Shown: positions 16,310 to 57,749 of the stretch, piece after piece
How positions within the stretch are numbered: position 1 is the stretch's first letter
Layout: every line of letters begins with the position of its first letter
The notes under the pieces: model-generated
Database searches by the model: none
Told to the model about the DNA's origin: nothing
Seen by the model: only the letters and a program-made list of their open reading frames with translations
Origin: Thermoanaerobaculia bacterium
Lineage (GTDB): Bacteria > Acidobacteriota > Thermoanaerobaculia > Gp7-AA8
DNA length: 64,000 nucleotides
Direction: 5' to 3'
Assembly: GCA_036522835.1 (NCBI GenBank)
Contig: DATDFB010000057.1
Span: 3,906-67,905 of the forward strand
Translations under genes and position numbers: made by a program

Positions 16310-16329
16310 GGCGCGTTACGCCCGCATAC

Positions 16330-16428: not shown

Positions 16429-16446
16429 GGCCGAAAGCAGGCGAGC

Positions 16447-19925: not shown

Positions 19926-19930
19926 TTGAT

Positions 19931-26720: not shown

Positions 26721-27841
26721 GAATCGGCATCACCTGCTACCCCACCTTCGGCGGCTCCGGCGTGGTAGCCACGGAGCTCGGCATCGCTCTGGCCAAGATG
26801 GGCGACGACGTCCACTTCATCAGCTACGCGCCGCCGTCGCGGCTCAACATCCTCCACGAGCGCGTGCGCTTCCACGAAGTCACGGTCACGCCGTATCCGC
26901 TCTTCGATCCGTTCCCGCCGTACACGCTGGCGCTGGCGACGAAGATGGCGGAGATCGCCGAGTACGAGCGCCTCGACGTGCTGCACGTGCACTACGCGAT
27001 CCCGCACGCCATCAGCGCCCACCTCGCCCGCGAGATCCTCGGCGACAAGATGCGCTTCGTCACCACCCTGCACGGCACCGACATCACCCTCGTCGGGCGC
27101 GACGCGTCGTATCTGCCGATCACGAAGTTCGGCATCGAAGTCTCCGACGGCGTCACGGCCGTGTCGCATTGGCTGCGCGACGAGACGGAGAAGAACTTCG
27201 GCACGAAGAAGGAGATCGCCGTCATCCCGAACTTCGTCGATCCGCTGCGCTTCCAGCGCCACGAGAGCGCGTTCTGCCACCTCTTCGGCGACGCCGGCGA
27301 CCGCCTCCTCTGCCACGTCTCGAACTTCCGTCCCGTGAAGCGGATCATGGACGTGCTGGCCGTCTTCGAGCGCGTGCTGCGCGTGATCCCGAGCCGCCTG
27401 GTGATGATCGGCGACGGCCCCGACCGTTCCAAGGCCGAGGCGTTCTGCCGTCAACATCATTTGAAGGACCGCGTCTTTTTCCTCGGCAATGTTCCGAATC
27501 TCGAAGAGATCGTCGGCGCCAGCGACGTGTTCCTCCTGCCCAGCGAGCACGAGTCGTTCGGCATGGCCGCGCTGGAGGCGATGGCCTCGGAAGTCCCGGT
27601 CATCGCCACGCGCGCGGGCGGACTGCCCGAGGTCGTGGTCGACGGCGAGACCGGATACCTCCTGCCGGTCGGCGACGTCGACGCCATGGCCGAGCGCGCC
27701 ATCGCCATCCTCACCGACAAGGTCCTGCAGCGCCGCCTCGGGCGCGCCGGACGCGCGCTGGCGGAGGAGCAGTTCAACGTGAACCGCGTCGTGCCGATGT
27801 ACCGCGAGTTCTATGAGAAGTTCCTGGTTCTTCGTTCTTAG
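26717..27841 (+). CDS. bshA: N-acetyl-alpha-D-glucosaminyl L-malate synthase (GT4)
   Basis: GTG start overlapping the bshB stop (GTGA). VRIGITCYPTFGGSGVVATELG, LHVHYAIPHA, TTLHGTDITLVG, HVSNFRPVKR, ESFGMAALEAMASEVPVIATRAGGLPEVV closely parallel Bacillus BshA. Confidence 0.88.
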   Translation: MRIGITCYPTFGGSGVVATELGIALAKMGDDVHFISYAPPSRLNILHERVRFHEVTVTPYPLFDPFPPYTLALATKMAEIAEYERLDVLHVHYAIPHAISAHLAREILGDKMRFVTTLHGTDITLVGRDASYLPITKFGIEVSDGVTAVSHWLRDETEKNFGTKKEIAVIPNFVDPLRFQRHESAFCHLFGDAGDRLLCHVSNFRPVKRIMDVLAVFERVLRVIPSRLVMIGDGPDRSKAEAFCRQHHLKDRVFFLGNVPNLEEIVGASDVFLLPSEHESFGMAALEAMASEVPVIATRAGGLPEVVVDGETGYLLPVGDVDAMAERAIAILTDKVLQRRLGRAGRALAEEQFNVNRVVPMYREFYEKFLVLRS

Positions 27842-27852
27842 TTCTTGGTTGG
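27821..27852. repeat. GTTCTT-rich half element at a convergent gene junction
   Basis: ttcctggttcttcgttcttagttcttggttgg. Related to the arms at 30363-30440. It encodes the last codons and stops of both bshA (+) and the transglycosylase (-). Confidence 0.65.
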
Positions 27853-30362: not shown

Positions 30363-30440
30363 GGGTTCTTAGTTCTTAGTTCTTGGTTCTTAAGTTTTGC
30401 CGAAACCCAAGAACCTAACAACATAAGAACCTAAGAACCA
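30363..30440. repeat. Low-complexity hairpin (TTCTTAG repeats / CTAAGAA repeats)
   Basis: ggttcttagttcttagttcttggttcttaagtttt-gccgaaa-cccaagaacctaacaacataagaacctaagaacc. It occupies most of the 118-bp divergent gap upstream of proS. Confidence 0.8.
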
Positions 30441-30456
30441 CTACAATCCCCCGCCC

Positions 30457-32157
30457 ATGCGCTGGAGCCAGTCCTTCATTCACACCCTGCGCGAAGTTCC
30501 GGCCGACGCGGACGTCGTCAGCCAGAGACTGATGATGCGCGCCGGCATGATCCGCAAAGTAGCCGCCGGAATTTACACCTATCTCCCCCTCGGCCTCCGT
30601 TCGATGCAGAAGCTCGAGGCCATCATCCGCGAGGAGATGAACCGCGCCGGCGCGGTGGAGCTCCTCGGGCCGACCATCCACCCGGGCGAGTTGTGGATGG
30701 AGTCGGGACGCTGGCAGCGCTACGGCAAGGAGCTCCTGCGCATCAAAGACCGCCACGAGCGCGACTTCGTCTACGGCCCCACGGCCGAGGAGGTCGTGAC
30801 CGACGCCGTGCGGAACACGCTCAACTCCTATCGACAGCTCCCGATCAACCTCTATCAGATCCAGACCAAGTTTCGCGACGAAGTGCGGCCCCGCTTCGGC
30901 CTCATGCGCGGGCGCGAGTTCACCATGAAGGACGCGTACTCCTTCCACGCCACGGCATCGTCGCTCGACGAGACGTACGAGAAGATGCGCGACGCCTACA
31001 GCGCCATCTTCCGCCGCTGCGCGCTCGACCACGTGCCGGTCGAGGCCGACACCGGCAACATCGGCGGCAGCGCCTCGCACGAGTTCATGGTGCTGGCGCA
31101 GTCGGGCGAGGACGCGGTCGTGTCGTGCCCCAACTGCCGCTACGGCGCGAACGTGGAGAAGGCCACGTCGAAGTTCTTCCTCGACGAGCCGGAGCCCGCG
31201 CCGATGGAAGCGATGGCCGAATTGCACACGCCGGGAACGCAGACGATCGACGACGTCGGCCGCTTCCTCGGCAAGCCGACCTCGCAGCTCGTCAAGACCC
31301 TCGTCTTCGACACCGACAAAGGGTGTCTGATGGTCCTCGTGCGCGGCGACCGCGAGGGGAACGAGGTCAAGATCAAGAACGTCTCCGGCGCCGAGTGGAT
31401 GGAGATGATGCCCGACGCGCGCTTCGAGGAGGCCACGGGCGGCCCGGTCGGCTATTGCGGTCCGGTCGGGACGAAGGCGGCACGCGTGATCGCCGACGTA
31501 TCGCTCAAAGGCCACGTCAACTGGATCGTCGGTGGCAATAAGAAGGACTACCACCTCGGCGGCGCGAATCCCGGCCGCGACTTCCCCGAGCCGGAGTACG
31601 CCGACGTCACGACCGTCTTCGCCGGCGATCCCTGTCCGCGCTGCGGCACGCCGCTGGAGATCAACCGCGGCATCGAGGTCGGCCATGTGTTCAAGCTCGG
31701 AACGAAGTACTCCGAGCCGATGGGCTGCACGTTCCTCGATGAGAACGGCGAGCGCAAGCCGATGATCATGGGCTGCTACGGCTTGGGCGTCGGCCGCACG
31801 GTCGCCGCCGCGGTGGAGCAGAGCCACGACGACGACGGCATCATCTGGCCGATCCCGATCGCGCCGTACACCGTCGTCGTGACCGCGCTCGGCAAAGAGG
31901 AGAGCGTGCGCGCGACGGCCGAGGAGGTCTACGCGAAGCTCCTGGCCGCCGGCGTCGACGTGCTCTTCGACGACCGCGACGAGCGCCCCGGCGTGAAGTT
32001 CAAGGACGCGGATCTGATCGGTTTTCCGCTGCGCATCGCCGTCGGCGCGAAGAGCCTGGCGAACGGCGTCATCGAGTGGAGCTGGCGCAAGGATCGCGCG
32101 AAGCAGCTCGGGCCGCCGGGCGAGGTGGTGGAGACGGTCATAACGGCCGCTCGGTAG
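30457..32157 (+). CDS. proS: Proline--tRNA ligase (bacterial type with editing domain)
   Basis: 566 aa. MRWSQSFIHTLREVPADADVVSQRLMMRAGMIRKVAAGIYTYLPLG, class II motifs FRDEVRPRFGLMRGREFTMKDAYSF and GCYGLGVGR, anticodon-binding C-terminus. The stop TAG lies inside a palindromic repeat. Confidence 0.97.
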   Translation: MRWSQSFIHTLREVPADADVVSQRLMMRAGMIRKVAAGIYTYLPLGLRSMQKLEAIIREEMNRAGAVELLGPTIHPGELWMESGRWQRYGKELLRIKDRHERDFVYGPTAEEVVTDAVRNTLNSYRQLPINLYQIQTKFRDEVRPRFGLMRGREFTMKDAYSFHATASSLDETYEKMRDAYSAIFRRCALDHVPVEADTGNIGGSASHEFMVLAQSGEDAVVSCPNCRYGANVEKATSKFFLDEPEPAPMEAMAELHTPGTQTIDDVGRFLGKPTSQLVKTLVFDTDKGCLMVLVRGDREGNEVKIKNVSGAEWMEMMPDARFEEATGGPVGYCGPVGTKAARVIADVSLKGHVNWIVGGNKKDYHLGGANPGRDFPEPEYADVTTVFAGDPCPRCGTPLEINRGIEVGHVFKLGTKYSEPMGCTFLDENGERKPMIMGCYGLGVGRTVAAAVEQSHDDDGIIWPIPIAPYTVVVTALGKEESVRATAEEVYAKLLAAGVDVLFDDRDERPGVKFKDADLIGFPLRIAVGAKSLANGVIEWSWRKDRAKQLGPPGEVVETVITAAR

Positions 32158-32209
32158 GGGCGCACGGCGTGCGCCCTCAGCGTCCGGGCGCACGCCGTGC
32201 GCCCCTACC
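32153..32209. repeat. REP-like palindrome, family GGTAGGGGCGCACGGCGTGCGCCC
   Basis: Perfect 24-bp inverted arms ggtaggggcgcacggcgtgcgccc / gggcgcacgccgtgcgcccctacc separated by 9 nt. It contains the proS stop codon. Confidence 0.9.
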
Positions 32210-41599: not shown

Positions 41600-42088
41600 A
41601 TGAAAATCCGTCCAGCCGAGGCGAAGGACCGCCCGCGCATCCGCGAGATCCTCGTTGCCACGGCGCGATTCACGGACGACGAGATCCGCGCCGCGGTCGA
41701 GCTCGTCGACCACTACCTCGACCATCCCGCCCGCTCCGAATACCTCACCTTCGTTCTCGAGTCGCCCGAGAGCGGCCCCAGCCGCCAGGTGCAGGGCTAC
41801 GTCACTTACGGCGCTACGCCGAAGACCGAGGGCGTGTTCGATCTCTACTGGATCGCCGTCGACCCGCGGCACCAGGGGCAGGGCTTCGGACAGCTTCTTC
41901 TACGCTTCGTAGAGAACGAAGTGCGCCGGCACCGAGGCAGAATGTTGCTCATCGAGACCTCGTCGAAGGAAAGTTATTCGTCGACGTTGCGCTTTTACCA
42001 ACGCAGCGGTTACGACGAGATCTCGCGAATTAAAGACTTCTACCGCATCGAGTGCGACAAAATCGTCTTCTGTAAGAAATTCGCATGA
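41600..42088 (+). CDS. GNAT family N-acetyltransferase
   Basis: 162 aa. YWIAVDPRHQGQGFGQLLLRFVE (Q/RxxGxG acetyl-CoA motif), ...TLRFYQRSGY. Confidence 0.85.
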   Translation: MKIRPAEAKDRPRIREILVATARFTDDEIRAAVELVDHYLDHPARSEYLTFVLESPESGPSRQVQGYVTYGATPKTEGVFDLYWIAVDPRHQGQGFGQLLLRFVENEVRRHRGRMLLIETSSKESYSSTLRFYQRSGYDEISRIKDFYRIECDKIVFCKKFA

Positions 42089-42873
42089 GCCCGAACCTGA
42101 CCCTTTACGCCGCACTCGGCCTCTACGCCGCCGGCACGCTGATGGCCTTGGCGTCGCTGTTCGGGCGGCGTTTGCAGACGCCGGCGCTGGTGCTGATGCT
42201 GGCCGGGTTCGTCAGCCACACGGTCTGGATCGGGACGATTTGCGTGCGCACGCACCACCCGCCGCTCACGAACCTGCCGGAGATCGCGGCGTTCCTGTCG
42301 TGGACGGTGTTCGTCGTGGAGCTGGTGCTGCTGTTCAAGTACCGCGTGCACGCGGCGTCGTTCTTCGTCTACCCGCTCGTGCTGATGCTCCTGACCGTCT
42401 CGGCCGTCGTGCACGAGCCGTTCGCGCTGGCCGGCCCGACGGCGCAGTCGAAGCTCTTCACGACGCACATCCTCCTCTCGACGGTCGGCGTGGCCGCACT
42501 GCTCATCGGCGTCGCGTTCAATGCGCTGGCCTGGATGCAAGACCGGTCGCTCAAGTCGAAGCACCGCGGGCGGACGTGGGAGTGGATCCCGAGCCTCAAC
42601 GTCTGCAAGACGCTGAGTTACCGGGCGCTGGCCGTCGGCTTCAGCATCTACACGCTCGGGATTCTGACGGGGATTCTCTGGTCCTACCGCACGACTTCGG
42701 AGCTGCTCGACCTGCGCGTCAAGCAGGTCGGCGCGATCGTGGCGTGGGTGCTCTTCGCAACGCTCCTGCAGTCGTACGTCAGCGGCGCGTATCGCGCGCG
42801 GAGGGCCATGGTGATCTCGGCCTGCGCGCTCGTGGCGGTGCTCGTGGCCATTTTGGGGATCCGGCATGTCTGA
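42085..42873 (+). CDS. Cytochrome c assembly protein family (CcsA/HemX-like) membrane protein
   Basis: 262 aa with 7-8 TM segments. W-rich region LGILTGILWSY...VAWVLFATLLQ as in CcsA/HemX proteins that accompany hemA. ATGA overlap with the GNAT gene. Confidence 0.75.
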   Translation: MSPNLTLYAALGLYAAGTLMALASLFGRRLQTPALVLMLAGFVSHTVWIGTICVRTHHPPLTNLPEIAAFLSWTVFVVELVLLFKYRVHAASFFVYPLVLMLLTVSAVVHEPFALAGPTAQSKLFTTHILLSTVGVAALLIGVAFNALAWMQDRSLKSKHRGRTWEWIPSLNVCKTLSYRALAVGFSIYTLGILTGILWSYRTTSELLDLRVKQVGAIVAWVLFATLLQSYVSGAYRARRAMVISACALVAVLVAILGIRHV

Positions 42874-43079
42874 GCAGAACGCTCGCACTCTGCCAACGCT
42901 CGGGAGAACGACCGGGAGGCCTCCGGCGGGCGGGCACGGCCCGCAGCGTTTGTTGGCGCGCAAATCATGTTTCCTGCGAAACCCGTACGTTCGGCCGGAG
43001 GCAACCAGCGCTGCGGGCCGCGCCCGCCCGCCGGAGGCCCTTCGTCGTCCCCTGCGTTGGCAGAGTGCGAGCGTTCTGC
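42874..43079. repeat. 206-bp nested palindrome (MITE-like or structured-RNA-like) between the ccsA-like gene and hemA
   Basis: Outer arms form a perfect 26-bp inverted repeat: gcagaacgctcgcactctgccaacgc (42874-42899) / gcgttggcagagtgcgagcgttctgc (43054-43079). Inner arms 42914-42948 / 43009-43040 are about 32 bp with 1-2 mismatches. About 60-nt central region. Confidence 0.85.
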
Positions 43080-44355: not shown

Positions 44356-45356
44356 GCGAGACAATCCGCATCGGCACGCGCGGCAGCCAACTCGCGCTCT
44401 GGCAAGCCAACGAAGTGTCGAACCGGCTCAGCGAAATCGGCTACCGGCCGGAGATCGCGGTCATCAAGACGACGGGCGACAAGCGCACCGACGTGCCGCT
44501 GTCGTCGGTCGGCGGCAAGGGCCTCTTCATCAAGGAGCTCGAGGAGGCGCTGGCGCGGCGCGAGATCGATGTGGCCGTGCACTCGCTCAAGGACGTGCCG
44601 TCGCTCGTCCCCGAGCCGTTCGTGCTGGCCGGCTTCCTCGAGCGCGCCGACGCCCGCGACGCCTGGGTGCAGCTCGACGGCACGCGCATCGAGGAGCTGG
44701 CTGCAGGCGCGGTCGTCGGCACGAGCGCGCCGCGGCGGCGCGCGCAACTGCGGCTGCTCTTTCCGTCGCTCACGCTCGAGGAGATGCGCGGCAACGTCGA
44801 CACGCGCATCAATAAACTGCGCGCCGGCTTGTACGACGGCGCGGTGCTGGCGTCGGCCGGACTCATTCGACTCGGCCGTTCCAGCGAGATCACCGCGCAG
44901 TTCGACGTCGACCAGATGGTGCCGGCCGCGGGGCAGGGCATCGTCACGATCGAGTGCAACAAAGACGACGATCGCGCGCGCCAGGCCGCCGCGGCGATCA
45001 ACCACCATCCCAGCGAGGCCGCGGCGCGCGCCGAGCGCGGCGTGCTGCAGAAGTTCGGCGAGGCGCTCGACTGCTACTCCGCCGTGGCCGTGCATGCGAC
45101 GTGGGCCCGTGTCATTCCGCGTCGCGAAGACGGCGAGGAGTCCCGTGCACACGACGACGGCGATGCTCCGTCGGCAGGAGATCCTTCGCCGTCTTCGCGG
45201 CTCGGGATGACACGTCTCAAGATCCGCGCGTTCTTCGGCGAGCTCGAAGGCGAGCGCCATTTGCACGTCACGCGCGAAGGCGACGAGGCCGACGCCGTCG
45301 TGCAGCAAGTCTTCGACGAGCTCGTCGACCGCGGAGCCATGGAGCTGCTCAAGTGA
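44352..45356 (+). CDS. hemC: Hydroxymethylbilane synthase (porphobilinogen deaminase) with in-frame repeat-derived insertion
   Basis: Last 335 codons of track ORF 42240..45356. ATGA overlap with hemA. IRIGTRGSQLALWQA, HSLKDVP, RGNVDTRINKL, and the cofactor Cys in EALDCYSAV. Contains a 35-codon insert, (R)VIPRREDGEESRAHDDGDAPSAGDPSPSSRLGMTR. Confidence 0.93.
   Translation: MSETIRIGTRGSQLALWQANEVSNRLSEIGYRPEIAVIKTTGDKRTDVPLSSVGGKGLFIKELEEALARREIDVAVHSLKDVPSLVPEPFVLAGFLERADARDAWVQLDGTRIEELAAGAVVGTSAPRRRAQLRLLFPSLTLEEMRGNVDTRINKLRAGLYDGAVLASAGLIRLGRSSEITAQFDVDQMVPAAGQGIVTIECNKDDDRARQAAAAINHHPSEAAARAERGVLQKFGEALDCYSAVAVHATWARVIPRREDGEESRAHDDGDAPSAGDPSPSSRLGMTRLKIRAFFGELEGERHLHVTREGDEADAVVQQVFDELVDRGAMELLK
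45109..45213. repeat. REP-like palindrome (GTGTCATTCC...GGGATGACAC), 105 bp, in frame inside hemC
   Basis: gtgtcattccgcgtcgcgaagacggcgaggagtccc ... ggagatccttcgccgtcttcgcggctcgggatgacac. About 36-bp arms, about 33-nt loop. Length 105 = 35 codons. Confidence 0.88.
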
Positions 45357-46810: not shown

Positions 46811-47062
46811 CGCCTCGTCAGCCGCAGTACGGCGGGCACTCGCCAGAGGTTGCGCAGCAGCAACAGACCGCGCAGTGAATGTGCTGATGCTCGCACGTAA
46901 ATCGTCACCGTTGTAGTGCGACTCGCACTCGCTCCGTCCCGGTCTCGTTCCAGGTGCCGAACGCGAAGGCAAAACCGGCGCGCCCGTTCAACTTCGCCAA
47001 GGACGGCCGGCGACGCATGGACACATCAGCGGCGCGGCCGCCTGCGCGGTTGGCGGTGTGGC

Positions 47063-50000
47063 ATGCCATACGAATGCCAGTCAGGCTTGGACGCCGCCGC
47101 CCTCAGCTACACTCCGCGCGTGCCGCGCGTCCTCAAAGCCTCGCTCTGGCTGGCCGCCTTCTTTTTCGCCTGCGGTATTTTCCTCGGCACGACGCAACTG
47201 CTTCGGGCCGTGCCGCCGACGCCGCACGTGGCCGTGGGGCGGGTGACGGTCGAGAACGCGTCGAAGCTGCGCGAGTACCTCACGGCGCTCCTCTTTTTCG
47301 TCCTCGTCCCGCCGCTGACGATCGGCCTCTATCGGCTCGGCTCCCGGCAGCTCGAGCGGTTTCCCGGCACCCTTCCCTCGGCACTCTTCGTCGCGCCATT
47401 TTTCCTCGCGCCGTTCCTTTATCTGACGACGTTCAAGTGGGGCTGGCCGCTCATCATCCCGCTCGCGGCGTCGCAGCTCGGCCCGCGCGCGCTGCTGCTC
47501 TTCCGGCGCACGCGCTGGCTGCGACAGCTCCTGGCGATGAAAGCGTTCAACGCCCTCATCGCCGCCGAGGCGCTGGCGTGGATCCTCTTCTTCTACATCG
47601 GCACGTGGCACCGCATCGCCCACATCGCCACGCTCTTTCTCGAGATCGTCTTCGTCGGCTTCTTCATCGCCCTCTTCTGGTGCGCCTTCGCCCTGATCGC
47701 GCGGATCGCCTCGTTCACCGGCGGCATCGACATCGAGGTCGCGTTCCAGAGAGTCGCCGCCGGCGCGCTGCCGCTGATCATCCTGCCGGCGCTCGGCCTT
47801 CGCTTCGTCCCGGCGCACATCGCCATCTCCACGGTCATGGCCGTGACGTTCGCGACGATCGCGATGGTTCTGCAAGGCAAGGAGCCGGTCGATGCGAGGC
47901 GCGTCCGCAACGTCACCGCGTACGTCATCTTCCCGCTCCTCCTCTATTGCGTCAGCTACGCCTCGACCGCGGCGCTCTCGCAGTGGATCGACCTCTTCCA
48001 CCGCGGCGAGTCGCTCGGCCCAGCCTTCGACTACCTCCGCGGCAAAGTCCCGTACCGCGACGTCTTCGTCCTGCACGGCCTGCTCGAGGACGGCCAGCTC
48101 GACGCCTGGCTCTTCCAGCTCTTCGGCCGCAATGCCGGCATCGCCCTGGCGCGGCCCGTGATCCTAGGCTCGTTCGCCGTGCCGGCGCTCTGGTACGTCG
48201 GCATGGCCATCTTCGACTCGATCCCGCTCGCGGCGCTGGTGATGCTCCTCGGGGCCGTGACAACGGTCGACAACGAGCGCGAGTTGTGGGAGATCCTCGT
48301 CCTGGCGCTGCTCCTCGGCGCGCTGCGGCGGAAATCGAAAATGCTCTATGTCCTCAGCGGCGTCGCCGCCGGCGTCACGCTCTTCTTCAGCTTCGACATC
48401 GGCCTCTACTCGATCGCCGGCGGCTTGATCGTTTGTGGAGTGCGGTGGCCACGCCACCGCTCTGACAGCGGCGGCATGGCCGCCGCACTCCAGATCTTCG
48501 GCATCGCGATCGGCACCGCACCGTTCATCGCATATCTGGCGAGCAAAGGTGCCGTTAAAGCCTTCTTCGAAACCTCCTTCGTCACGATCCCGCGAATCAT
48601 CGACGCCGTCTGGTCGCTCCCCTTTCCCGACCTCACCTCCACGTTCCGCAGCAAGAATCTCAACCTCCACACACTCTCCGACTTTTTCCTCTACGAGCAC
48701 TTCCGCTACATCCTCAATCCGCTCGTCATCTGCCTGGCCATTCTGGTGCTGCTGTGGCGGCGCAAGCGGTGGGAGTGGATCGACACCGCCCTCTTCGCGC
48801 TCACGATCTTCGCCGTCCTCACCCAGCGCAGCGCGTTGGGCCGCGCCGACTTCCCGCATCAATACTTCTCCGCGTTTCTCATCGGCCCGATGATCCTCAT
48901 CCTCCTCGTGCTTCTCGCGCGGGCGGGGCAGTGGTCGGTGGCGCTGCTCGTGCCGCTGCTCGCCGTCGTGCTGTGGGTGCCGGACATCGCCAACGGCCGC
49001 ATCGACGACACCTGCCACTACCAGGGCCGCGTCAGCGGCACCATTCGCGACCCGAAGGCGGAGGAGGTGCGCAACCGCATCGACGCCGTGCGCTACTGGG
49101 TCTGGCAGCACAGCAAGCCGAATCAGCCGATCTTCGACTTCTCGAACCAGCCGGCGCTCTACTTCTTCTGCGAGCGGCCGAATCCGACGCGCTTCTACCA
49201 GGTGCCGATCCTCTCGCCGCCGGCGCTGCAGCGCGAGACGATTCTGGCGCTCGAGCGCGCGAAGCCGCCCGTCGTCATCCGGCGCTCGCCGCAGGAGTTC
49301 GACGTCTTCGACGGCATCGACAACGCCATCCGCGCGCAGGCCGTGGCCGCGTATCTCGACGACTTCTACGTCTTCGCCCACACCACGCGCGGCGTCGAGG
49401 TGTGGGTGCGCAAGGCGCCGGCGCCGCAGCTCAATCTCGCCGGTTACATGCGCCGCTACCGCATCCCCACGCTCGAGGAGCTCGGCACGATCGGCGGGCG
49501 CTCGCGCGTCGTCTTCCCGACCGTCGGCACCGTGCCGGGCGTCGGCGGTGCGTACTGGCGCTCCGATTTGATGCTGCACAACCCGTGGAAGGAGACGATC
49601 TCGCTCGACCTCCGTTACGTCGCCGGCGACGTCCGCGCGCACCGCAACGTCATCCTAGGCGCCGGGCAGAGCATCGTCTGGCCCGACGTCGTACGCACGT
49701 TCTTCGGCGCGCCGGAGAGCCGCGGGGTGCTGTGGATCGAGTACCGCGGCACGAACGCGCCCGTCGCGCGGGTGAAGACGTCCGATGTCGCGCACGAGGC
49801 GAAGGCGACGATCGACGCGCCGCTGACGCTCGCCGGCTCCGCGACGGCCGGGACGCCGAGCGACGACCTGACGATTTTCGGCCTCCCCTCGACGAAGGAC
49901 CGGCGGATCAACATCGGCATCGTGAACGTCGGCGCGATTCCGGCCACGTTCCGCATCACGGCGCGCTCGCGCACCGGGCAGCCGATCGGCAGGCCGATCG

Positions 50001-50188
50001 AGGAAGGGCTGGCCGAGGACGAGTCGTACACGCTGACCGACCTCGAGTCGCAGTTGCGCGCGCGGCTCGATGAGACGACGAGCGTGCACGTCGGCGTCGT
50101 GGCCGGGACGTGCATCGCCTACGCGACGGTCGTCGACATCAACGGCGACACGCAGTTCATCGCCGCGCTGCCGTCGCAGCAGCCATGA
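47063..50188 (+). CDS. Large (~1040 aa) polytopic membrane protein with C-terminal soluble beta-rich domain; function unknown
   Basis: Track ORF 46916..50188. The first 49 codons are Arg-rich junk, so the start is taken at ATG 47063 (alternative GTG 47120). More than 15 hydrophobic segments over ~650 aa. The soluble tail has GGAYWRSDLMLHNPWKETISLDLRYV... Contains an in-frame palindromic repeat at 48434-48491. Confidence 0.7.
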   Translation: MPYECQSGLDAAALSYTPRVPRVLKASLWLAAFFFACGIFLGTTQLLRAVPPTPHVAVGRVTVENASKLREYLTALLFFVLVPPLTIGLYRLGSRQLERFPGTLPSALFVAPFFLAPFLYLTTFKWGWPLIIPLAASQLGPRALLLFRRTRWLRQLLAMKAFNALIAAEALAWILFFYIGTWHRIAHIATLFLEIVFVGFFIALFWCAFALIARIASFTGGIDIEVAFQRVAAGALPLIILPALGLRFVPAHIAISTVMAVTFATIAMVLQGKEPVDARRVRNVTAYVIFPLLLYCVSYASTAALSQWIDLFHRGESLGPAFDYLRGKVPYRDVFVLHGLLEDGQLDAWLFQLFGRNAGIALARPVILGSFAVPALWYVGMAIFDSIPLAALVMLLGAVTTVDNERELWEILVLALLLGALRRKSKMLYVLSGVAAGVTLFFSFDIGLYSIAGGLIVCGVRWPRHRSDSGGMAAALQIFGIAIGTAPFIAYLASKGAVKAFFETSFVTIPRIIDAVWSLPFPDLTSTFRSKNLNLHTLSDFFLYEHFRYILNPLVICLAILVLLWRRKRWEWIDTALFALTIFAVLTQRSALGRADFPHQYFSAFLIGPMILILLVLLARAGQWSVALLVPLLAVVLWVPDIANGRIDDTCHYQGRVSGTIRDPKAEEVRNRIDAVRYWVWQHSKPNQPIFDFSNQPALYFFCERPNPTRFYQVPILSPPALQRETILALERAKPPVVIRRSPQEFDVFDGIDNAIRAQAVAAYLDDFYVFAHTTRGVEVWVRKAPAPQLNLAGYMRRYRIPTLEELGTIGGRSRVVFPTVGTVPGVGGAYWRSDLMLHNPWKETISLDLRYVAGDVRAHRNVILGAGQSIVWPDVVRTFFGAPESRGVLWIEYRGTNAPVARVKTSDVAHEAKATIDAPLTLAGSATAGTPSDDLTIFGLPSTKDRRINIGIVNVGAIPATFRITARSRTGQPIGRPIEEGLAEDESYTLTDLESQLRARLDETTSVHVGVVAGTCIAYATVVDINGDTQFIAALPSQQP
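48434..48491. repeat. REP-like double palindrome (TGGAGTGCGG...CCGCACTCCA) in frame inside the large membrane protein gene
   Basis: tgtggagtgcggtggccacgccaccgc-tctgaca-gcggcggcatggccgccgcactcca translates as CGVRWPRHRSDSGGMAAALQ. Confidence 0.85.
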
Positions 50189-50736
50189 TCGAGCTCGCGT
50201 TGCCCTGGGGCGATCGCGCCATCGCCATCCGCGACGTCGACGATCCGGAATCGTGGCTGCGCGGAGACGAGCTCGCGGTCGCGCGCGCCTTCCCGCGCGA
50301 GAAGCGCAGACAGGAGTGGATGCTCGCCCGCGCCGCTGCGAAAGTGCTCGCGCGCCGCCGCGGCCTCGGCGACATCGCCGTCGAGCGCCCGCTCGTGTCG
50401 GTCTCGCACTCAGGCCCGTGGGCCGCGGCGGCGATCGACACGATGCCGGTCGGCATCGACATCGAAGTCGTGCGCGACGTCAGCGAGCGCGCCGCGCGGC
50501 ACTTCCTTACCGAGGAGCAGATCGCGCAGATGGAGTCATGCACGATTCCGCATCGCCTGCTGCACTTCTGGTGCGCAAAGGAGGCGGCATGGAAGCGGCT
50601 GTGCGGCTCGATTCCGTTTCTGAAAGGCGTCCCGCTGACGCTTCTGGAGTGCGGCGGCCATGCCGCCGCTTTCGATTCCGTGGAGACGATCGAGCTCGGC
50701 GGCGTCGTCGTCGCCCTCACGCGCCCCACTTCTTGA
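50185..50736 (+). CDS. 4'-phosphopantetheinyl transferase superfamily protein (Sfp/EntD-like)
   Basis: In-frame part of track ORF 50110..50736 from MIELALPWGD (ATGA overlap with the upstream gene). SVSHSGPWAAAA, PVGIDIEVV, FWCAKEAAWK (W/FxxKEAxxK). Confidence 0.8.
   Translation: MIELALPWGDRAIAIRDVDDPESWLRGDELAVARAFPREKRRQEWMLARAAAKVLARRRGLGDIAVERPLVSVSHSGPWAAAAIDTMPVGIDIEVVRDVSERAARHFLTEEQIAQMESCTIPHRLLHFWCAKEAAWKRLCGSIPFLKGVPLTLLECGGHAAAFDSVETIELGGVVVALTRPTS
50645..50670. repeat. Half copy of the TGGAGTGCGGCGGCCATGCCGCCGCT palindrome in frame in the PPTase gene
   Basis: tggagtgcggcggccatgccgccgct translates as LECGGHAAA near the PPTase C-terminus. Confidence 0.8.
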
Positions 50737-51571
50737 GCAGCGCCCGCGCGTCGTCCACCGCCGCGGCGTTCTCCACCTCGAACTCCGGCGGGTTCGGCGC
50801 GGCGATGGTCTCCTTCAGCATCTGCACCGCCTGCGGCCCAGTGTGGCTGTCGTTGCTCACCATCGCCTCCGCCAGGAACACCTTCGTGATCTTGTTCGTC
50901 GGGTCGACTTTCAGCGACTCGTTGAGAAACCGCACCGCCTCCTTCGACGACGCCCAGCCGGTGAGGAAGGGGATGCGCGGCGTCTGATCGTGCAGGCGGC
51001 CCAGGACGCGCTGGGGAGAGCCGCCGTCCATCCGCGGATCGACGAGCATCGCGATCGTCGCCTCCCGTTTGATGCGGTCGGCGGCGCCCTCGCGCGCGGC
51101 GGCCATCTTGCCGTAGGCAAGCGCCCACTCGCCCCAGTTGATCGCGTCCCAGAGGAACGTTTCGCCGGCGCCGGGGATGGTGCGCGCGACGTCGGCGACG
51201 CGCTTCTCCGTCGCCTTCGCCACCGAGGTCACGCCTTTCGCTTTCAGCAGATTGTCGACAACGGCGAGCGCGCCTTCGCCGGCCTTCTTCGCGTCACCGT
51301 AAATTTTCTTCTTCTCGTCGTTCGACGCGGCGACGTACGCGCCCTTGAAGCGGTACGCGCGCAGCAGCTTCCAGCGCGCCTCGACGTCGTTCGGGCTCGC
51401 GGCGACGGCGCGCTGGTACGCGGCGATGGCGGCATCGATCTGCGCCGCCTTGGCCCTCCCGCCCACGTGCCCCTCGGCGCGCGCATTCCAATGCTGGTCG
51501 CCCTCCGCAACCTGCGCCAGCGCGGCGACGGGCATCGTGAGAGCGAGGAGCGCGATGAAGATGTTTCGCAT
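50717..51571 (-). CDS. Exported helical-repeat (TPR-like, TatT-family-like) protein
   Basis: In-frame part of track ORF 50717..52021 from MRNIFIALLALTMPVAALAQ (ATG at complement 51569-51571). Helical repeats. FLWDAINWGEWALAYGK and GSPQRVLGRLH resemble TatT-type TPR proteins. Weak family call. Confidence 0.6.
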   Translation of the reverse strand: MRNIFIALLALTMPVAALAQVAEGDQHWNARAEGHVGGRAKAAQIDAAIAAYQRAVAASPNDVEARWKLLRAYRFKGAYVAASNDEKKKIYGDAKKAGEGALAVVDNLLKAKGVTSVAKATEKRVADVARTIPGAGETFLWDAINWGEWALAYGKMAAAREGAADRIKREATIAMLVDPRMDGGSPQRVLGRLHDQTPRIPFLTGWASSKEAVRFLNESLKVDPTNKITKVFLAEAMVSNDSHTGPQAVQMLKETIAAPNPPEFEVENAAAVDDARALLKKWGA

Positions 51572-51612
51572 ACGTGCGATTTTATGGCACACCGCTTGAA
51601 CCGGCTTCAGCC

Positions 51613-51915
51613 ATGCGCAGCATTGTTTGTCTCGCCGCCGTCCTCGCACTCGCGGCTTGCCGCGGCGAGAAGATTCCGCGCGACTACCAGAACAACCCGC
51701 CGGCGATGACGCACCCGGTGACGAAGTCGTCCGATACGCCGACCGCGCACGGCATGCCCGGCCCGGCGCCGGAGCCGAGCAAGGGCGCCGAGGGGAAGAA
51801 CGTGAGCCGGCAGCCGACGTCGCCGACCTCGACAACGTACACCCTCGGCGATCAGGCGCCGACGCAGACGACCAGCACCTCCGCGACGGGGACGCAGTTG
51901 AAGGTGAAGCCATAA
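51613..51915 (+). CDS. Small lipoprotein, Pro/Thr/Ser-rich, unknown function
   Basis: MRSIVCLAAVLALAAC lipobox at the start chosen within track ORF 51574..51915. Low-complexity remainder. Coding status is moderate. Confidence 0.5.
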   Translation: MRSIVCLAAVLALAACRGEKIPRDYQNNPPAMTHPVTKSSDTPTAHGMPGPAPEPSKGAEGKNVSRQPTSPTSTTYTLGDQAPTQTTSTSATGTQLKVKP

Positions 51916-51916
51916 T

Positions 51917-51975
51917 GCGGAGTGCGGCGGCCATGCCGCCGCTGTAACAGCGCCGGCATGGCCGGCGCACTCCAC
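51917..51975. repeat. REP-like double palindrome abutting the fmt ATG
   Basis: gcggagtgcggcggccatgccgccgc-tgtaaca-gcgccggcatggccggcgcactccac is followed directly by the ATG at 51976. Confidence 0.88.
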
Positions 51976-52836
51976 ATGCGCCTGCTTTTTTTCGGAACCC
52001 CGCAATTCGCCGTGCCGACACTCGAGGCCATCGCGCGCGAGCACGAGGTCGTGCTCGTCGTCGCGCAGCCCGACAAGCCCGCGGGCCGCGGCATGCATCT
52101 GCAGGCTCCCGCGGTGGTCGTGCGCGCGCGCGAGCTTGGGCTGCCGGTGGCGCAGCCGCCGAAGATCCGCGACTTCGCGCCGCCCGCGGCCGAGGCGGCG
52201 ATCGTCGTCGCGTACGGAAAGATCCTGCCGGCGGCGCTGCTCGCCACGATGCCGTTCTACAACGTGCACGCGTCGCTGCTGCCGAAGTACCGCGGCGCGG
52301 CGCCGATCCAGCGTTCCATCGAGCACGGCGAAGCGGAAACGGGCGTGACGATCATGCGCATCGACGAGCAGCTCGATCATGGGCCGACGCTGCTGGCTGC
52401 GTCGACGGCAATCGACCCCGATGAGCATTCGCCGGGGCTCGGCTCCCGGCTTTCGGCTCTCGGCGCGGATTTGATGCGGCGGGTGCTGCGCGAGCGGCCG
52501 GCCGAGGTCGAGCAGGACCACGCGCGGGCCACGCTCGCGCCGAAGATCGACAAGGAGGAGGGACTCGTCGACTGGAGCGCCCCGGCGCGGGCGATCTACG
52601 ACAAGTTCCGCGCCTTCGATCCATGGCCCGGGATTTTCACGGACACGATGAAGTTGATCGACGTCGCGCCGGCTTCCGGCCAGGGCGCGCCGGAAAGCAT
52701 CCTCGCCATCGACGACGGCGTCGTCGTCGCTTGCGGCGAGGGCGCGCTGCGCGTGCGCACGATCCAGCGCGCGGGAAAGCCGCGCGTGAACGCCGCCGAC
52801 GTGGCGCGCGCGGAACGCTGGCGCGTCTTCCCATGA
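51976..52836 (+). CDS. fmt: Methionyl-tRNA formyltransferase
   Basis: In-frame part of track ORF 51922..52836 from MRLLFFGTPQFAVPTL. AQPDKPAGRG and NVHASLLPKYRGAAPIQRSI. Confidence 0.93.
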   Translation: MRLLFFGTPQFAVPTLEAIAREHEVVLVVAQPDKPAGRGMHLQAPAVVVRARELGLPVAQPPKIRDFAPPAAEAAIVVAYGKILPAALLATMPFYNVHASLLPKYRGAAPIQRSIEHGEAETGVTIMRIDEQLDHGPTLLAASTAIDPDEHSPGLGSRLSALGADLMRRVLRERPAEVEQDHARATLAPKIDKEEGLVDWSAPARAIYDKFRAFDPWPGIFTDTMKLIDVAPASGQGAPESILAIDDGVVVACGEGALRVRTIQRAGKPRVNAADVARAERWRVFP

Positions 52837-53984: not shown

Positions 53985-56016
53985 CATCCCTGTTGGCAAC
54001 GGCTCGTTGCTCGTTGCCTTCGATGCCAAGTACCGCCTCGCCGACATCTACTTCCCCCATGTCGGCCACGAGAACCACAGCGGCGCGCGCTTCCGCTTCG
54101 GCATCTTCGCCGACGGCGTTTGCAGTTGGATCGAGGACGACCGCTGGCAGCGCACGCTCGGGTACCTGCGCGACACGATCGTCAGCGACGTGGTGGCCGA
54201 GAACGCCGAGCTGGGCCTGCGCCTGCGCTGCCACGACGCCGTCGATGCCGACGCCAACGTCTACGTCCGCAAAATCGTGGTGCGCAACACGCGCGACGAC
54301 GCCCGCACGGTGAAGTTCTTCTTCCACCACGACTTCAACCTCTACGGCAACCCGAACGGCGACACGGCCATGTTCGATCCCGACTCGGCGAGCGTCATCC
54401 ACTACAAGATGAAGCGCTACTTCCTCGTCAGCGCCGGCACGGATGCGCGCAGCGGCATCGACGAGTACGCATGCGGGCGGAGCGGCATCGGCGGCGAGGA
54501 GGGGACGTGGCGCGACGCCGAGGATGGCGCGCTGTCGATGAATGCCATTCAGCAGGGGTCGGTCGACTCGACGATCGCCATCAGCGTCGACATCGAAGCG
54601 CACGGCAGCGCCACCGTCTACTACTGGATCTGCGCCGGCGCGCGCTACGGCGAAGTGCGCGAGCTCGACCGCTACGTGCGCGAGGAGACGCCGGCGCGCA
54701 TCATCGCCCGCACCGCGTCGCTTTGGTACACGTGGGTCAACAAGAACGGCGAGGATCTCTCCGACCTGCCCGAGGAGATCGGCGATCTCTACCGGCGCTC
54801 GCTCCTGGTCGTGCAGACGCAGTGCGACCACGAGGGCGGCATCACCGCCGCGAACGACTCCGACATCGAGTGGAGCCACAACGATCACTACTCGTACGTC
54901 TGGCCGCGCGACGGCGCCTTCGTCGCCGACGCCATGGACCGCGCCGGCTTCCACGCCCTGGCGCGGCGCTTCCTACAGTTCGCGCACGACTCGATCTCCA
55001 GCGAAGGCTACTTCCTGCACAAGTACGCGCCCGACGGCTCGGTGGCGTCGGCGTGGAACCCGTGGGTACGCCGCGGCAAGAAACAACTCCCCATTCAGGA
55101 AGACGAGACCGCGCTGATCCTCTGGCTCGTGGCGCGGCACTACGAGCGGACGCGCGACCTCGAGTTCGTCCGGGCCGTCTACCGGCGCCTGGTCGTGCAG
55201 CCGGCGGAGTTCATGATCGACTTCCGCGATCCGCTCACGCATCTGCCGCAGCCGTCGTTCGACATCTGGGAGGAGCGGCAGGGCGTCTTCACCTTCACCT
55301 GCGCCGCGGTCTCCGCGGGGTTGCGCGCCGCCTCGGAGCTCGCCAACCTGTTCAACGAGCAGGAGCGGCGCAACCGCTACGCGCGCGCGGCGGCCGAGGT
55401 GCGCGATGCCATCGTGCGGCATCTGTGGCTCGAACAGGAGGGGCGCTTCGCGCGCGGCCTGGCGCTGCGCGACGACGACACGCTCGAGCTCGACGCCACG
55501 ATCGACGCCTCGGCGTTCGGTACGTTCTACCTCGACGTCTTTCCGGCGGAGAGCGCCATGGTGGAGGGCACGATGCGCGCCGTGCGCGAGGCGCTGTGGA
55601 TCTCGACGGAGACCGGCGGCGTGGCCCGTTACGAGCGCGACCGCTACCAGCGCACGAGCAACGATGACGAGAGCATCGCCGGGAACCCGTGGCTGATCTG
55701 CACGCTCTGGCTGGCCGAGCACGCCGTGGCGCGGGCGACGTCCGTGGCGGAGCTGCAATCGGCGCTCGACCTGGTGCGCTGGGCGCGCTCGAAGGCGCGG
55801 CCGTCGCTGGTGTTGCCCGAGCAGATCGATCCGTCGACGGGCGCGCCGCTCTCCGTCGCGCCGTTCACGTGGAGTCACGCGCAGGTGATCTCGGTCGTGC
55901 GCGGCTACCTCGACGCGCTTCGTTTTCTGCGCCGCGAATCGCGCGACAACGCCGCGCGCGGCGAGGAAAAAATCGCGCGCGATCATCCCGTTGACAAACC
56001 GAAATGGTTTCCATAG
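53974..56016 (+). CDS. Glycoside hydrolase family 15 protein (glucoamylase / trehalase-related)
   Basis: 680 aa. N-terminal beta-sandwich (GNGSLLVAFDAKYRLADIYFPHVG) plus (alpha/alpha)6 catalytic domain with YSYVWPRDGAFVADAM, IWEER and NPWLICTLWLAEH. Confidence 0.88.
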   Translation: MPRDIPVGNGSLLVAFDAKYRLADIYFPHVGHENHSGARFRFGIFADGVCSWIEDDRWQRTLGYLRDTIVSDVVAENAELGLRLRCHDAVDADANVYVRKIVVRNTRDDARTVKFFFHHDFNLYGNPNGDTAMFDPDSASVIHYKMKRYFLVSAGTDARSGIDEYACGRSGIGGEEGTWRDAEDGALSMNAIQQGSVDSTIAISVDIEAHGSATVYYWICAGARYGEVRELDRYVREETPARIIARTASLWYTWVNKNGEDLSDLPEEIGDLYRRSLLVVQTQCDHEGGITAANDSDIEWSHNDHYSYVWPRDGAFVADAMDRAGFHALARRFLQFAHDSISSEGYFLHKYAPDGSVASAWNPWVRRGKKQLPIQEDETALILWLVARHYERTRDLEFVRAVYRRLVVQPAEFMIDFRDPLTHLPQPSFDIWEERQGVFTFTCAAVSAGLRAASELANLFNEQERRNRYARAAAEVRDAIVRHLWLEQEGRFARGLALRDDDTLELDATIDASAFGTFYLDVFPAESAMVEGTMRAVREALWISTETGGVARYERDRYQRTSNDDESIAGNPWLICTLWLAEHAVARATSVAELQSALDLVRWARSKARPSLVLPEQIDPSTGAPLSVAPFTWSHAQVISVVRGYLDALRFLRRESRDNAARGEEKIARDHPVDKPKWFP

Positions 56017-56067
56017 ATTGTCGAAACCGGCTTAAAACAAGGGGTTTCGCACAGGAGGAAGGCGTAT

Positions 56068-56373
56068 ATGGCAGGAAAAGGTGACGTCATCAACGAGATC
56101 GCCGACCAGGCTGGGATCTCGAAGAAGGAAGCGGCCGCAGCGTTCGACGCATTCGTCAGCTACATCTCCGGCTCGTGCCAGCGAGGCGAGCGCTGCTCGA
56201 TCCCAGGGCTCGGCAGCTTCTCCGTCTCGCAGCGCAAGGCGCGCGAGGGCCGCAACCCCCGCACGAACGAAAAGATCACCATCCCGGCATCGAAGAACGT
56301 CCGCTTCAAGGCCGGCAAGGACCTCAAGGACGCCGTAAACGTTTCCGGTAAGCGGGGGTCGAAGAAGAAGTAG
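56068..56373 (+). CDS. hup: HU/IHF family nucleoid-associated DNA-binding protein with Lys-rich tail
   Basis: 101 aa. Strong SD AGGAGG (56053-56058). ISKKEAAAAFDAF, IPGLGSFSVSQRKAREGRNPRTNEKITIPASKNVRFKAGKDLK, C-terminal GKRGSKKK. Confidence 0.92.
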   Translation: MAGKGDVINEIADQAGISKKEAAAAFDAFVSYISGSCQRGERCSIPGLGSFSVSQRKAREGRNPRTNEKITIPASKNVRFKAGKDLKDAVNVSGKRGSKKK

Positions 56374-56404
56374 CCCGTCACCTGCCAGAAGCCTGCGATG
56401 AACG

Positions 56405-56436
56405 AGCGCTCCGGGAAGCCGGAGCGTTTTTCGTTT
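56405..56436 (+). terminator. Rho-independent terminator downstream of hup
   Basis: 8-bp GC stem CGCTCCGG (56407-56414), GAAG loop, CCGGAGCG (56419-56426), followed by TTTTTCGTTT. Confidence 0.75.
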
Positions 56437-56470
56437 AAGTTGTTAGGTTCGCAGGTTGTTACGTTCTTCA

Positions 56471-56687
56471 CCGATCGAAGAGCGCACGCTTCCGATCGAA
56501 GAACGAACGCTTCAATCGGAATCGTGCGCTCTTCGATTTTAATCGTACGCTCTTCGATCTTTATCGCGCGCTCTTCGATCTTTATCGCGCGCTCTTCGAT
56601 CGGAATCGCGCGCTCTTCGATCGGAATGGCGCACTCTTCGATCGGAATCGTGCGTTCTTCGGTTGCAAGCGTGCGTTCTTCGAAAAC
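56471..56687. repeat. Array of ten 21-bp units (2 inverted + 8 direct), consensus AATCGCGCGCTCTTCGATCGG
   Basis: Direct units start at 56520, 56541, 56562, 56583, 56604, 56625, 56646 and 56667. Inverted units are at 56471-56491 and 56492-56512 (ccgatcgaagagcgcacgctt is the exact reverse complement of aagcgtgcgctcttcgatcgg). The array is flanked by GTTGTTAGG / CCTAAGAAC-type inverted sequences at 56437-56470 and 56688-56716. Confidence 0.9.
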
Positions 56688-56723
56688 AACCTAAGAACTC
56701 AACAACTTAACAACCGGATCACC

Positions 56724-57749
56724 TCAAACCCACGCCCGCGGTACGAACAACGTCTCATACAACTTGATCGCGTACCGATCCGTCATCCCGGCCACGAAGT
56801 CGATGGCCAGCCGCTCGGTCGTCTCTTCGCTGTTCACCGGCAGGTACTCCTCGGGGTGGGCGACGACGTACTCGAAGAGCGCGGTGACGATGCGCTTCGC
56901 TTTTTCCAATTCGTCGCGCACGGCGGGGATGAGGTACATGTGCTCGAACATGTAGCGGCGTAGCTCTTCGAGCGCCTCCAGCACCTCGGCCGACATGCGG
57001 ATCGCCTCGTAGCCGCAGGCGAGCGTCTGGGCGACGACGTCGCGCACCATGCGGTCGATGCGCTGGCTGCCGGTGGGGCCGAGCGTGTCGCGGATCGCCT
57101 TCGGGATGTCGTCCTCGGTCAAGAGGCCGGCGCGGATGCCGTCGTCGATGTCGTGGTTCACGTAGGCGACGATGTCGGAGATGCGCACGATGTCGCCCTC
57201 GAGCGTGAGCGCCCGGGAGCGCGGCCGCGAGCGCAGCAACTCTCCCTTCTCGCCCTTCGAATGTTTGAGGATGCCGTCGCGCACTTCGATCGTGAGGTTG
57301 AGGCCGCGGCCGTCGTTCTCCAGCACCTCCACGACGCGCACCGACTGCCGGTAGTGATCGAAGCCGCCGCGCACGAGCTTATTGAGCGCCGCCTCGCCGG
57401 CGTGCCCGAACGCGGAGTGCCCGAGGTCGTGGCCGAGACCGATGGCCTCGGTGAGCACTTCGTTGAGGCGCAGCGACTTCGCGATCGTGCGCGCGATCTG
57501 CGTCACCTCCAGCACGTGCGTCAGGCGCGTGCGGTAGTGGTCGCCCTCGGGTGCGAGGAACACCTGCGTCTTGTGCTTGAGGCGCCGGAAGGCCTTGCAG
57601 TGAATGATGCGGTCGCGGTCGCGCTGGTAGGAGGGGCGGAGGTCGTCCTCCGGCTCGGCGCGGTCGCGGCCGCGCGTGCCGGCGCTCTTCGCGGCGCGCG
57701 GGTGAAACGTCTCGGCTTCGATTTGCTCGAGGGTCTCGCGGATCGTCAC
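56724..57749 (-). CDS. dgt: dGTP triphosphohydrolase-like HD-domain protein
   Basis: 341 aa. RDRDRIIHCKAFRRLKHKTQVF, RTRLTHVLEVTQIARTIA, GLGHDLGHSAFGHAGE. Confidence 0.9.
   Translation of the reverse strand: MTIRETLEQIEAETFHPRAAKSAGTRGRDRAEPEDDLRPSYQRDRDRIIHCKAFRRLKHKTQVFLAPEGDHYRTRLTHVLEVTQIARTIAKSLRLNEVLTEAIGLGHDLGHSAFGHAGEAALNKLVRGGFDHYRQSVRVVEVLENDGRGLNLTIEVRDGILKHSKGEKGELLRSRPRSRALTLEGDIVRISDIVAYVNHDIDDGIRAGLLTEDDIPKAIRDTLGPTGSQRIDRMVRDVVAQTLACGYEAIRMSAEVLEALEELRRYMFEHMYLIPAVRDELEKAKRIVTALFEYVVAHPEEYLPVNSEETTERLAIDFVAGMTDRYAIKLYETLFVPRAWV

Follow-up and report, generated by a model that had tools for sequence, protein, structure and literature searches.

REP sequences depend on RAYT transposases and the units of BIMEs alternate in orientation; classical VNTRs, such as the mycobacterial MIRUs, are direct arrays, and plasmid iterons or partition centromeres adjoin their own rep or par genes and keep a conserved binding motif. 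REP clusters have been described as partial terminators and mRNA stabilisers in 3′UTRs, and they sit between convergent genes (bioRxiv 10.64898/2026.03.23.713779). REPINs are described as inverted REP doublets forming long hairpins (PMC3116915), and REPs themselves as high-copy sequences that are conserved within a genome and carry GTAG/CGTC tags (PMC3733652). The BrickBuilt elements of Porphyromonas gingivalis consist of direct repeats only, set between a leader and a tail that are both long and conserved; a genome carries 19 of them, and they have promoter activity (PMC4596501). The heptamer repeats of cyanobacteria and Beggiatoaceae (STRR, TAACTGA) are direct arrays of one conserved heptamer, mostly located just upstream of start codons (PMC4679880).

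The element compared here is a 21-bp repeat array lying in a 64-kb stretch of DNA (the window, meaning the whole stretch analysed) of an uncultured soil member of the Thermoanaerobaculia (Acidobacteriota). It shares with the REP, BIME and REPIN sequences of Enterobacteria and Pseudomonas an extragenic position, palindromic and clustered units, a convergent 3′ context and a presence and number that vary by strain. Extragenic imperfect palindromes at 3′ ends or between convergent genes are indeed found at this locus as well as at the second one described below. In contrast to REP/BIME, the element appears low in copy over the ~200 kb examined, and it is arranged in two blocks (n units, then m inverted ones) and kept in strict 21-bp phase. 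Unlike that of REPs, its unit sequence turns over between strains, no RAYT gene was seen among the 50 window proteins scanned, and neither GTAG nor CGTC is part of the 21-bp unit consensus. Like BrickBuilt (PMC4596501), it is an intergenic, spacer-less tandem repeat of ~21-23 nt, nested between inverted-ended flanks and variable in copy number, whereas its units occur in both orientations, its flanks are short repeat-armed hairpins that can be missing, and no promoter-like site was found within it. The head-to-tail intergenic unit in the 10-100-bp range, the strain copy-number polymorphism and the higher-order periods (63, 42 bp) are those of bacterial minisatellites and VNTRs (mycobacterial MIRUs), from which the two-arm inverted layout and the co-evolution of the arms set it apart. 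Contiguous short repeats of the ~17-22-bp range, in both orientations and in helical phase, also recall plasmid iterons and type Ib/II partition centromeres (parC of R1, omega-binding heptads); here, in contrast, there are neither adjoining rep/par genes nor a conserved motif. The arms of the bracket that frames the array, and those of other hairpins of the class, resemble the intergenic tandem heptamers of the STRR/TAACTGA type (PMC4679880), unlike which they use many heptamers, form hairpin arms and lie mostly at gene 3′ ends. The element would work most like REP/BIME/REPIN sequences; in appearance, its nearest counterpart is a minisatellite placed within a hairpin element, comparable to BrickBuilt within its MITE. 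The literature yielded analogues and no description of an identical class, and no paper was found on repeat elements of soil Thermoanaerobaculia. The arrangement in inverted blocks, the co-evolving arms and the repeat-armed hairpins found across the class appear to be undescribed in the literature.

The array between the HU and dgt genes

The left neighbour of the element is an HU-family nucleoid protein gene on the plus strand (56068-56373; PF00216, E=4e-31), with a sigma-70-like promoter at 55991-56019 and an intrinsic terminator at 56404-56436 (stem-loop 56404-56429, 11-bp stem, 4-nt loop and T-run), recognised by a terminator scan and in alignments. This terminator is kept in all relatives and forms the left limit of the variable region. 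On the right side, the minus-strand gene at 56724-57749 encodes a dGTPase-like HD phosphohydrolase (dgt; PF01966 and PF13286), the named homologs of which, dGTP triphosphohydrolases, all come from Thermoanaerobaculia MAGs (Acidobacteriota) at 82-92% identity. The convergent intergenic position between the HU terminator and the dgt stop, as given in the preliminary description, is borne out by the Pfam matches and by the terminator scan. The element sits in the dgt 3′ flank, 8 nt past the dgt stop codon. The scan of the region revealed only the plus-strand HU terminator and no intrinsic terminator for dgt. The 50 predicted window proteins scanned against Pfam correspond to ordinary chromosomal or housekeeping genes, with no replication, partition (Rep, ParA/B), transposase, Y1 transposase or RAYT-like gene among them. 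The window is syntenic with chromosomal contigs of relatives, and no DnaA box was found in its 64 kb at up to one mismatch.

Two 21-bp units in minus orientation (56471-56513; period 21, 2.0 copies and 90% matches in Tandem Repeats Finder, TRF) form the left arm of a palindromic minisatellite. They are 91-93% complementary to the eight direct units that follow on the plus strand (56510-56683; period 21, 8.3 copies, 84% matches, 0% indels, score 187), the consensus of which is CTTCGATCGGAATCG(C/T)GCGCT in the unit table. The arrangement initially described, with two inverted and eight direct units in strict 21-bp phase, is thus confirmed by TRF, which also detects a higher-order period of 63 bp in the array (score 208). 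As its units point both ways, the 280-bp element amounts as a whole to one long, imperfect inverted repeat; the best hairpin at the inverted/direct junction has 28-nt arms (93%). A repeat search of the region gave 13 inverted-repeat pairs, in families agreeing with those of TRF. At up to three mismatches, the consensus 21-mer occurs five times in the window, all within the array region, against 0.02 expected. Other details of the preliminary description had to be corrected. The first inverted unit had been taken for the exact reverse complement of a unit variant; it is that of no direct unit and lies two mismatches from the consensus. GCGCGC and a TCGATCG-type palindrome had both been attributed to each unit, whereas GCGCGC is found in three and TCGATCG in four of the eight direct units only. 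The degeneration toward both ends of the array holds only roughly.

The array sequence is identical in two independent assemblies (L001 from ENA, L002 from JGI), and is thus not a one-off assembly artefact; the array copy numbers given throughout derive from short-read assemblies, which may misjudge them. The G+C content is ~0.51 in the element versus ~0.68-0.72 a few hundred bases away on either side. RNA folding of the window element gives z-scores of about -8 to -10 on both strands and DNA folding a z of -6.5, in support of the cruciform or RNA hairpin potential noted beforehand. A search of 55500-57500 against Rfam 15 gave no match at E <= 1.

A few other identities were considered for the array. 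A CRISPR array was ruled out, the units being contiguous and devoid of spacers. The reading of the 21-bp unit as three diverged heptamers was rejected by inspection, the three 7-mers being unrelated. A CsrA sponge (GGA in CGAUCGGAAUCG mini-hairpins) does not fit either, GGA being missing in several window units and in the L003, L060 and L068 alleles. Z-DNA or gyrase-site readings of the alternating purine-pyrimidine cores are inseparable from a trivial cause, since a transition-mutated GC palindrome stays alternating.

The array is framed by an AT-rich outer bracket. Its left arm (56435-56468), delimited by a repeat search, is made of 7-8-nt sub-repeats (GTTGTTAGG / GTTGTTACGTTCTT). Its right arm (56685-56716; AACAACCTAAGAACTCAACAACTTAACAAC) was recognised by a TRF period of 8 and by an inverted-repeat search. 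Over 26 nt (56435-56460 / 56685-56710), the two arms are 85% complementary. The bracket motif AACCTAAGAAC gives eight matches in the window at up to one mismatch, against 0.07 expected, and these are located only in the bracket and at 30386-30438. The latter segment belongs to a stand-alone member of the same hairpin family (30365-30439; GTTCTTA x4 / AACCTAAG x4.5), identified by TRF, by its sequence and by the common motif. The proposed kinship of the bracket with the family at 30363-30440 is supported both by this common motif and by an array-free heptamer hairpin at the same, orthologous site in the relative L066, the GTTCTTA x4 arm of which is orthologous to the left bracket arm.

Alleles, relatives and a second locus

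The exact HU protein is present on seven soil-metagenome contigs. In L004, where the flanking genes are 94-97% identical, the array is two units shorter through a 43-bp deletion and carries additional substitutions. In L003/L005, the flanks are 93-95% identical and the HU protein 100% identical, and the intergenic region is only 76% identical. Their CTTCGTTTGCAAGCGTGCGCT-like units form a block of ~4.6 followed by ~6.4 inverted ones; the array reaches the dgt stop codon, and no right AT-rich arm is left. For the L003 array, the predicted fold is a hairpin with ~125-nt arms that pair almost perfectly (-190 kcal/mol, z -11.8). Copy-number variation among strains, which had been suggested as a check, is therefore real, with two units fewer in L004 and another count and orientation in L003/L005. 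At 56657, the last direct unit in the window belongs to the ancestral TTGCAAGCG type, which is that of L003; the CGATCGG variant of the window would therefore be derived and have expanded.

In relatives whose dgt is 83-92% identical, the dgt/HU junction (window 56374-56723) displays at least six different states, including the HU terminator alone, two distinct heptamer hairpins, the 21-bp array, an insert, a CLIPPER-domain gene and the rearrangement seen in L063. In L064 (84% dgt), the junction is 64 nt long and contains the HU terminator alone. In L066 (91% dgt, NCBI GCA_035942935.1), a hairpin of GTTCTTA x4 / TAAGAAC x4, of the same family as the window bracket and the 30365-30439 hairpin, lies between the dgt stop and the HU terminator. 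The hairpin found at the same place in L067 (91% dgt) is built from another heptamer, GGTTAGC. Genes are inserted at the junction in L061, L062 and L065, one insert measuring 1.9 kb with three ORFs without Pfam match. These varied states designate the junction as a rearrangement hot spot. No 21-bp array was found in L061-L067 by TRF and unit search. Together with the orthologous hairpin, these array-free relatives point to a young array, seated inside a pre-existing repeat-armed hairpin; to judge from them, the array is recent and unstable. Comparison of L064 (empty), L066 (hairpin only) and the window, the sequences of which have diverged, revealed no evident target-site duplication.

The same 21-bp family was also encountered at a second locus. 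In L060, a 427-bp gap between convergent genes is filled by ~9 + 10 inverted 21-bp units, next to a gene for a 166-aa protein with Thermoanaerobaculia homologs. The orthologous gap in L068/L069 (NCBI metagenome-assembly contig, 96% aa identity) contains 7 + ~9 inverted units, with the variant CTGAGTTTGTCGG. Lineages related to this second locus at 91-93% have no array and different neighbours. The second-locus arrays have no AT-rich bracket, and neither HU nor dgt nearby, so that the 21-bp family is independent of both. The adjacency of the window array to hup is thus, on this comparison, a coincidence.

Wider searches brought few further members. A double-unit pattern run against 185,579 representative genomes, among which the source lineage may not be included, revealed no array; its five matches are each a single chance match in coding DNA. 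A looser pattern gave at least 50 loci in metagenome contigs, L060 being the sole true relative among the matches listed, from which the known positive L002 was absent. Viral contigs showed no related array; the eight hits there were 2-copy duplications of another kind, within phage coding sequence for IEEL-type heptads. Such collection scans may miss other unit variants and do not bound the size of the array family. Array density is low, with one array per 64-kb window and ~200 kb examined. What has been seen so far is a low-copy family filling convergent intergenic regions, only in soil Thermoanaerobaculia.

The 57 units of five alleles give the consensus CTTCGTTTG(T/C)AAGCG(C/T)GCGCT, with no invariant position. 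The unit combines a GC-rich near-palindromic core (GCGYGCRCGC) with an asymmetric, A/T-richer spacer, the direction of which sets the orientation. Between strains that are 93-95% identical in the flanks and 100% identical in the HU protein, several positions of the unit consensus change. Within one allele, variants are common to both arms, such as CGATCGG in the window and TTTGCAA in L003; the second-locus variant mentioned above lies on both L068 arms and is missing from L060. The fraction of 8-mers that an array shares between its own two arms is 0.53, 0.42, 0.21 and 0.26, versus 0.26, 0.10, 0.12 and 0.10 when the comparison is made with the other allele's orthologous left arm. An exception is the right arm of L060, which shares 0.29 of its 8-mers with the L068 right arm against 0.23 with its own left arm. 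The two arms seem to switch unit variant jointly, a pattern that is clearest at the HU-dgt locus. At either locus, each allele is predicted to form a long hairpin on both strands (z -7 to -14). What persists, as far as these alleles can tell, is the structure or symmetry, not the sequence. Such arm co-evolution can arise mechanically, through template switching at quasi-palindromes, without selection.

Competing readings of the element

The chances look about even that the element is a non-coding palindromic minisatellite grown inside a repeat-armed hairpin, which would behave, if it acts at all, as a REP/BIME-like 3′-end hairpin. A 21-bp unit would have multiplied inside the pre-existing AT-rich repeat-armed hairpin, just past the dgt stop codon. 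The array would then grow, shrink and alter its unit sequence fast, by slippage or by unequal exchange of one to three units. Its arms would be kept alike by selection for pairing or by arm-to-arm template switching, and any function would depend on structure, not on sequence. Transcribed at the end of the GH44-dgt transcript, the element may fold into a long hairpin, which could limit read-through into the converging HU gene and/or shield the 3′ end from exonucleases, as E. coli REP/BIME sequences do. Some observations argue against a 3′-hairpin role. Read on the minus strand, that of dgt, the hairpin runs into AAACGAAAAACG instead of a U-run, and the HU gene has its own terminator. The 64-nt junction of L064, with no hairpin, implies that any function is dispensable. 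Moreover, two window hairpins (16329-16429 and 30365-30439) lie in divergent promoter regions, the gene calls having been checked with Pfam, so that the 3′-end position is not universal.

A less probable, still serious reading is that of a neutral by-product, in which a functionless minisatellite arises by slippage in a permissive 3′-3′ gap and owes its complementarity only to mechanical template switching. This would account for the relatives (84-91% dgt identity) that lack the array, for strains of at least 93% identity that vary in copy number and unit sequence, and for a hot spot with at least six states. The arrays extend exactly to stop codons or to the terminator, as if bounded only by selection on the neighbours, and a one-arm expansion is seen in the asymmetric heptamer hairpin L071 6319-6443 (GTTGGCA x12 vs x2-3). 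What a neutral origin explains less readily is the long hairpin potential kept in every allele, at two independent loci, despite complete unit turnover. In addition, the gene end that bears a hairpin in L066 also bears one in L067, made of a different heptamer, a recurrence suggesting that structure persists. It is unlikely that the array is the cargo of a transposing MITE-like or REPIN-like element, the AT-rich arms being its terminal inverted repeats. The arms are indeed terminal inverted repeats (26-30 nt, 70-85% complementary), the bracket belongs to a dispersed hairpin family (30365-30439; L066), near-identical hairpin copies exist at 16329-16429 and 19814-19928, an unrelated second locus (L060, L068) carries homologous 21-bp units, and BrickBuilt offers the precedent of a minisatellite in a MITE (PMC4596501). 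However, the second-locus and L003 arrays are devoid of one or both bracket arms, and filled and empty sites show no evident target-site duplication. No transposase or RAYT-like gene was detected among the 50 Pfam-scanned window proteins, the 64 kb of the window contain a single array while ~70 kb of related contigs contain none, and the two near-identical hairpins have differing loops, unlike MITE copies. Dispersed copies with a common internal sequence were not seen in the 64-kb window or in L061-L067, and the second-locus arrays come without bracket. The MITE-like cargo of the preliminary description is therefore retained in one part only, the nesting of the array in a pre-existing hairpin element.

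Quite unlikely as well is the idea that the arrays and heptamer hairpins are products of one dedicated, undescribed process, which would build and symmetrise arm repeats at gene ends and for which a hairpin-specific nuclease/polymerase or a RAYT-like enzyme could be candidates. The presence of different repeats at the same orthologous site, with arms changing together, fits such a process. If it were true, these sequences would form a new class of self-expanding palindromic elements, possibly used as gyrase or supercoil sinks, or insulating transcription where two genes converge. An iteron- or centromere-like array, with a dimeric protein bound to near-palindromic cores every two helical turns, is very improbable. 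Each unit of the family does contain a 10-14-bp near-palindrome (e.g. AAGAGCGCGCTCTT in L003), with cores that alternate purine and pyrimidine, and the 21-bp phase is exact, with no indels; whole-unit duplication yields this exact phase automatically. Against protein binding stand the lack of any invariant position over the 57 units and a unit consensus that is not kept between strains of identical HU protein and 93-95% flank identity. A rep, par or DnaA-box context was not found in the window, the array lies downstream of both genes rather than at a promoter or origin, and close relatives have no array. The initial iteron-like label finds no support, given this missing Rep/Par and DnaA-box context, the unconserved unit and the array-free relatives, and the element does not indicate a new replication, partition or nucleoid-organising site. 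Finally, the probability is close to nil that the 98-aa ORF (56398-56694), or a dgt read-through extension, encodes a heptad-repeat peptide. Although 21 nt correspond to seven codons and all six frames of the consensus unit are open, the start of the ORF falls within the HU terminator, L004 has at least two stops in every frame, frames differ between alleles, and no gene is called at the array in any public contig. The read-through extension was rejected because the in-frame continuation of dgt ends after 10 codons. Six-frame consensus peptides of three unit types gave no match at E <= 0.01 in a 5.8-billion-protein database. The earlier view that the 98-aa ORF merely translates the array agrees with its lack of Pfam match and with the broken frame in L004, and a coding reading is effectively refuted.

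If the reading as a palindromic minisatellite within a repeat-armed hairpin is true, soil Thermoanaerobaculia, an abundant and uncultured acidobacterial class, would carry their own REP-like kind of element, tandem-repeat-armed hairpins, which would occasionally inflate into 250-430-bp palindromic minisatellites. Such elements are natural strain-typing markers in metagenomes, and likely causes of contig breaks and spurious ORF calls. They also provide a clean natural system in which to follow the persistence of long bacterial palindromes, and of arm complementarity amid sequence turnover.

Other hairpins in the window and in the class

Repeat-armed hairpins are common in Thermoanaerobaculia, with many different heptamers, and many of them start -2 to +13 nt from a stop codon. 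A window example at 4723-4804 has arms of GAATGCA x4.4 / TGCATTC x4.7 (31 nt, 94% complementary) around a 20-nt GC-rich loop, its right arm overlapping the stop codon of the minus-strand ORF 4803-5969. The two copies at 16329-16429 and 19814-19928 have the same 44-45-nt arms (CCACGGAAA.TTAGAACGCAGAATGCGAATGCAGAATGAAGAAA) and quite different loops (13 vs 25 nt); such conserved arms with variable loops differ from ordinary MITE copies. The former occupies the divergent region between a Wzy_C-like gene (minus strand) and a GT4 glycosyltransferase gene (plus strand), the latter the interval between a KDPG aldolase stop and the start of a LigB/RidA gene. A half-array with no inverted partner, AGTTCTT x4.6 at 27819-27850, spans the overlapping stops of the convergent GT4 (26312-27841) and SLT transglycosylase (27838-29892) genes, and the repeat thus encodes the last residues of one protein. 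In L071 (6319-6443), a near-perfect (GTTGGCA) x12.4 block is followed, after ~20 nt, by 2-3 inverted TGCCAAC units and abuts the stop of a TetR-family gene. This one-armed expansion parallels the 2-vs-8 asymmetry of the window array.

A stop codon, either TAG (GTTCTTA-G, GGTTAGC, GCTCTTA-G) or TGA (AGTGATC), is included in several of the hairpin heptamers. They are found in the hairpins L066 1203-1285, L067 3475-3552, L064 9697-9780 and L063 7737-7861. As a stop-containing heptamer is repeated every 7 nt, it places a stop in all three frames within three repeats, which could be the reason for the 7-nt period at gene ends, or a coincidence.

The window and related contigs contain further palindromic structures. 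A REP-like hairpin family (GTGTCATCCTGAG...GAAGGATCC) is present in the window at 2324-2403 and 45108-45214, and at 9726-9860 in L063. A GC-rich palindrome (TGGAGTGCGGCGGCCATGCCGCCGC...) occurs in three copies (5915-5975, 48436-48492 and 51915-51977) that overlap predicted ORFs. The predicted ORFs 46916-50188 and 50717-52021 have no Pfam match; either the palindromes are intragenic or the ORF calls are wrong. A perfect hairpin with 24-nt arms at 32153-32209 (GGTAGGGGCGCACGGCGTGCGCCC / complement), each arm of which is itself palindromic, begins within the stop-codon region of the prolyl-tRNA synthetase gene (30457-32157). At 42874-43079, between a cytochrome-c assembly gene (42085-42873) and hemA, lies the window's longest inverted repeat (59-nt arms, 78%, with an inner 38-nt pair at 92%); it overlaps the predicted hemA start (42967) and may be a leader or regulatory structure.
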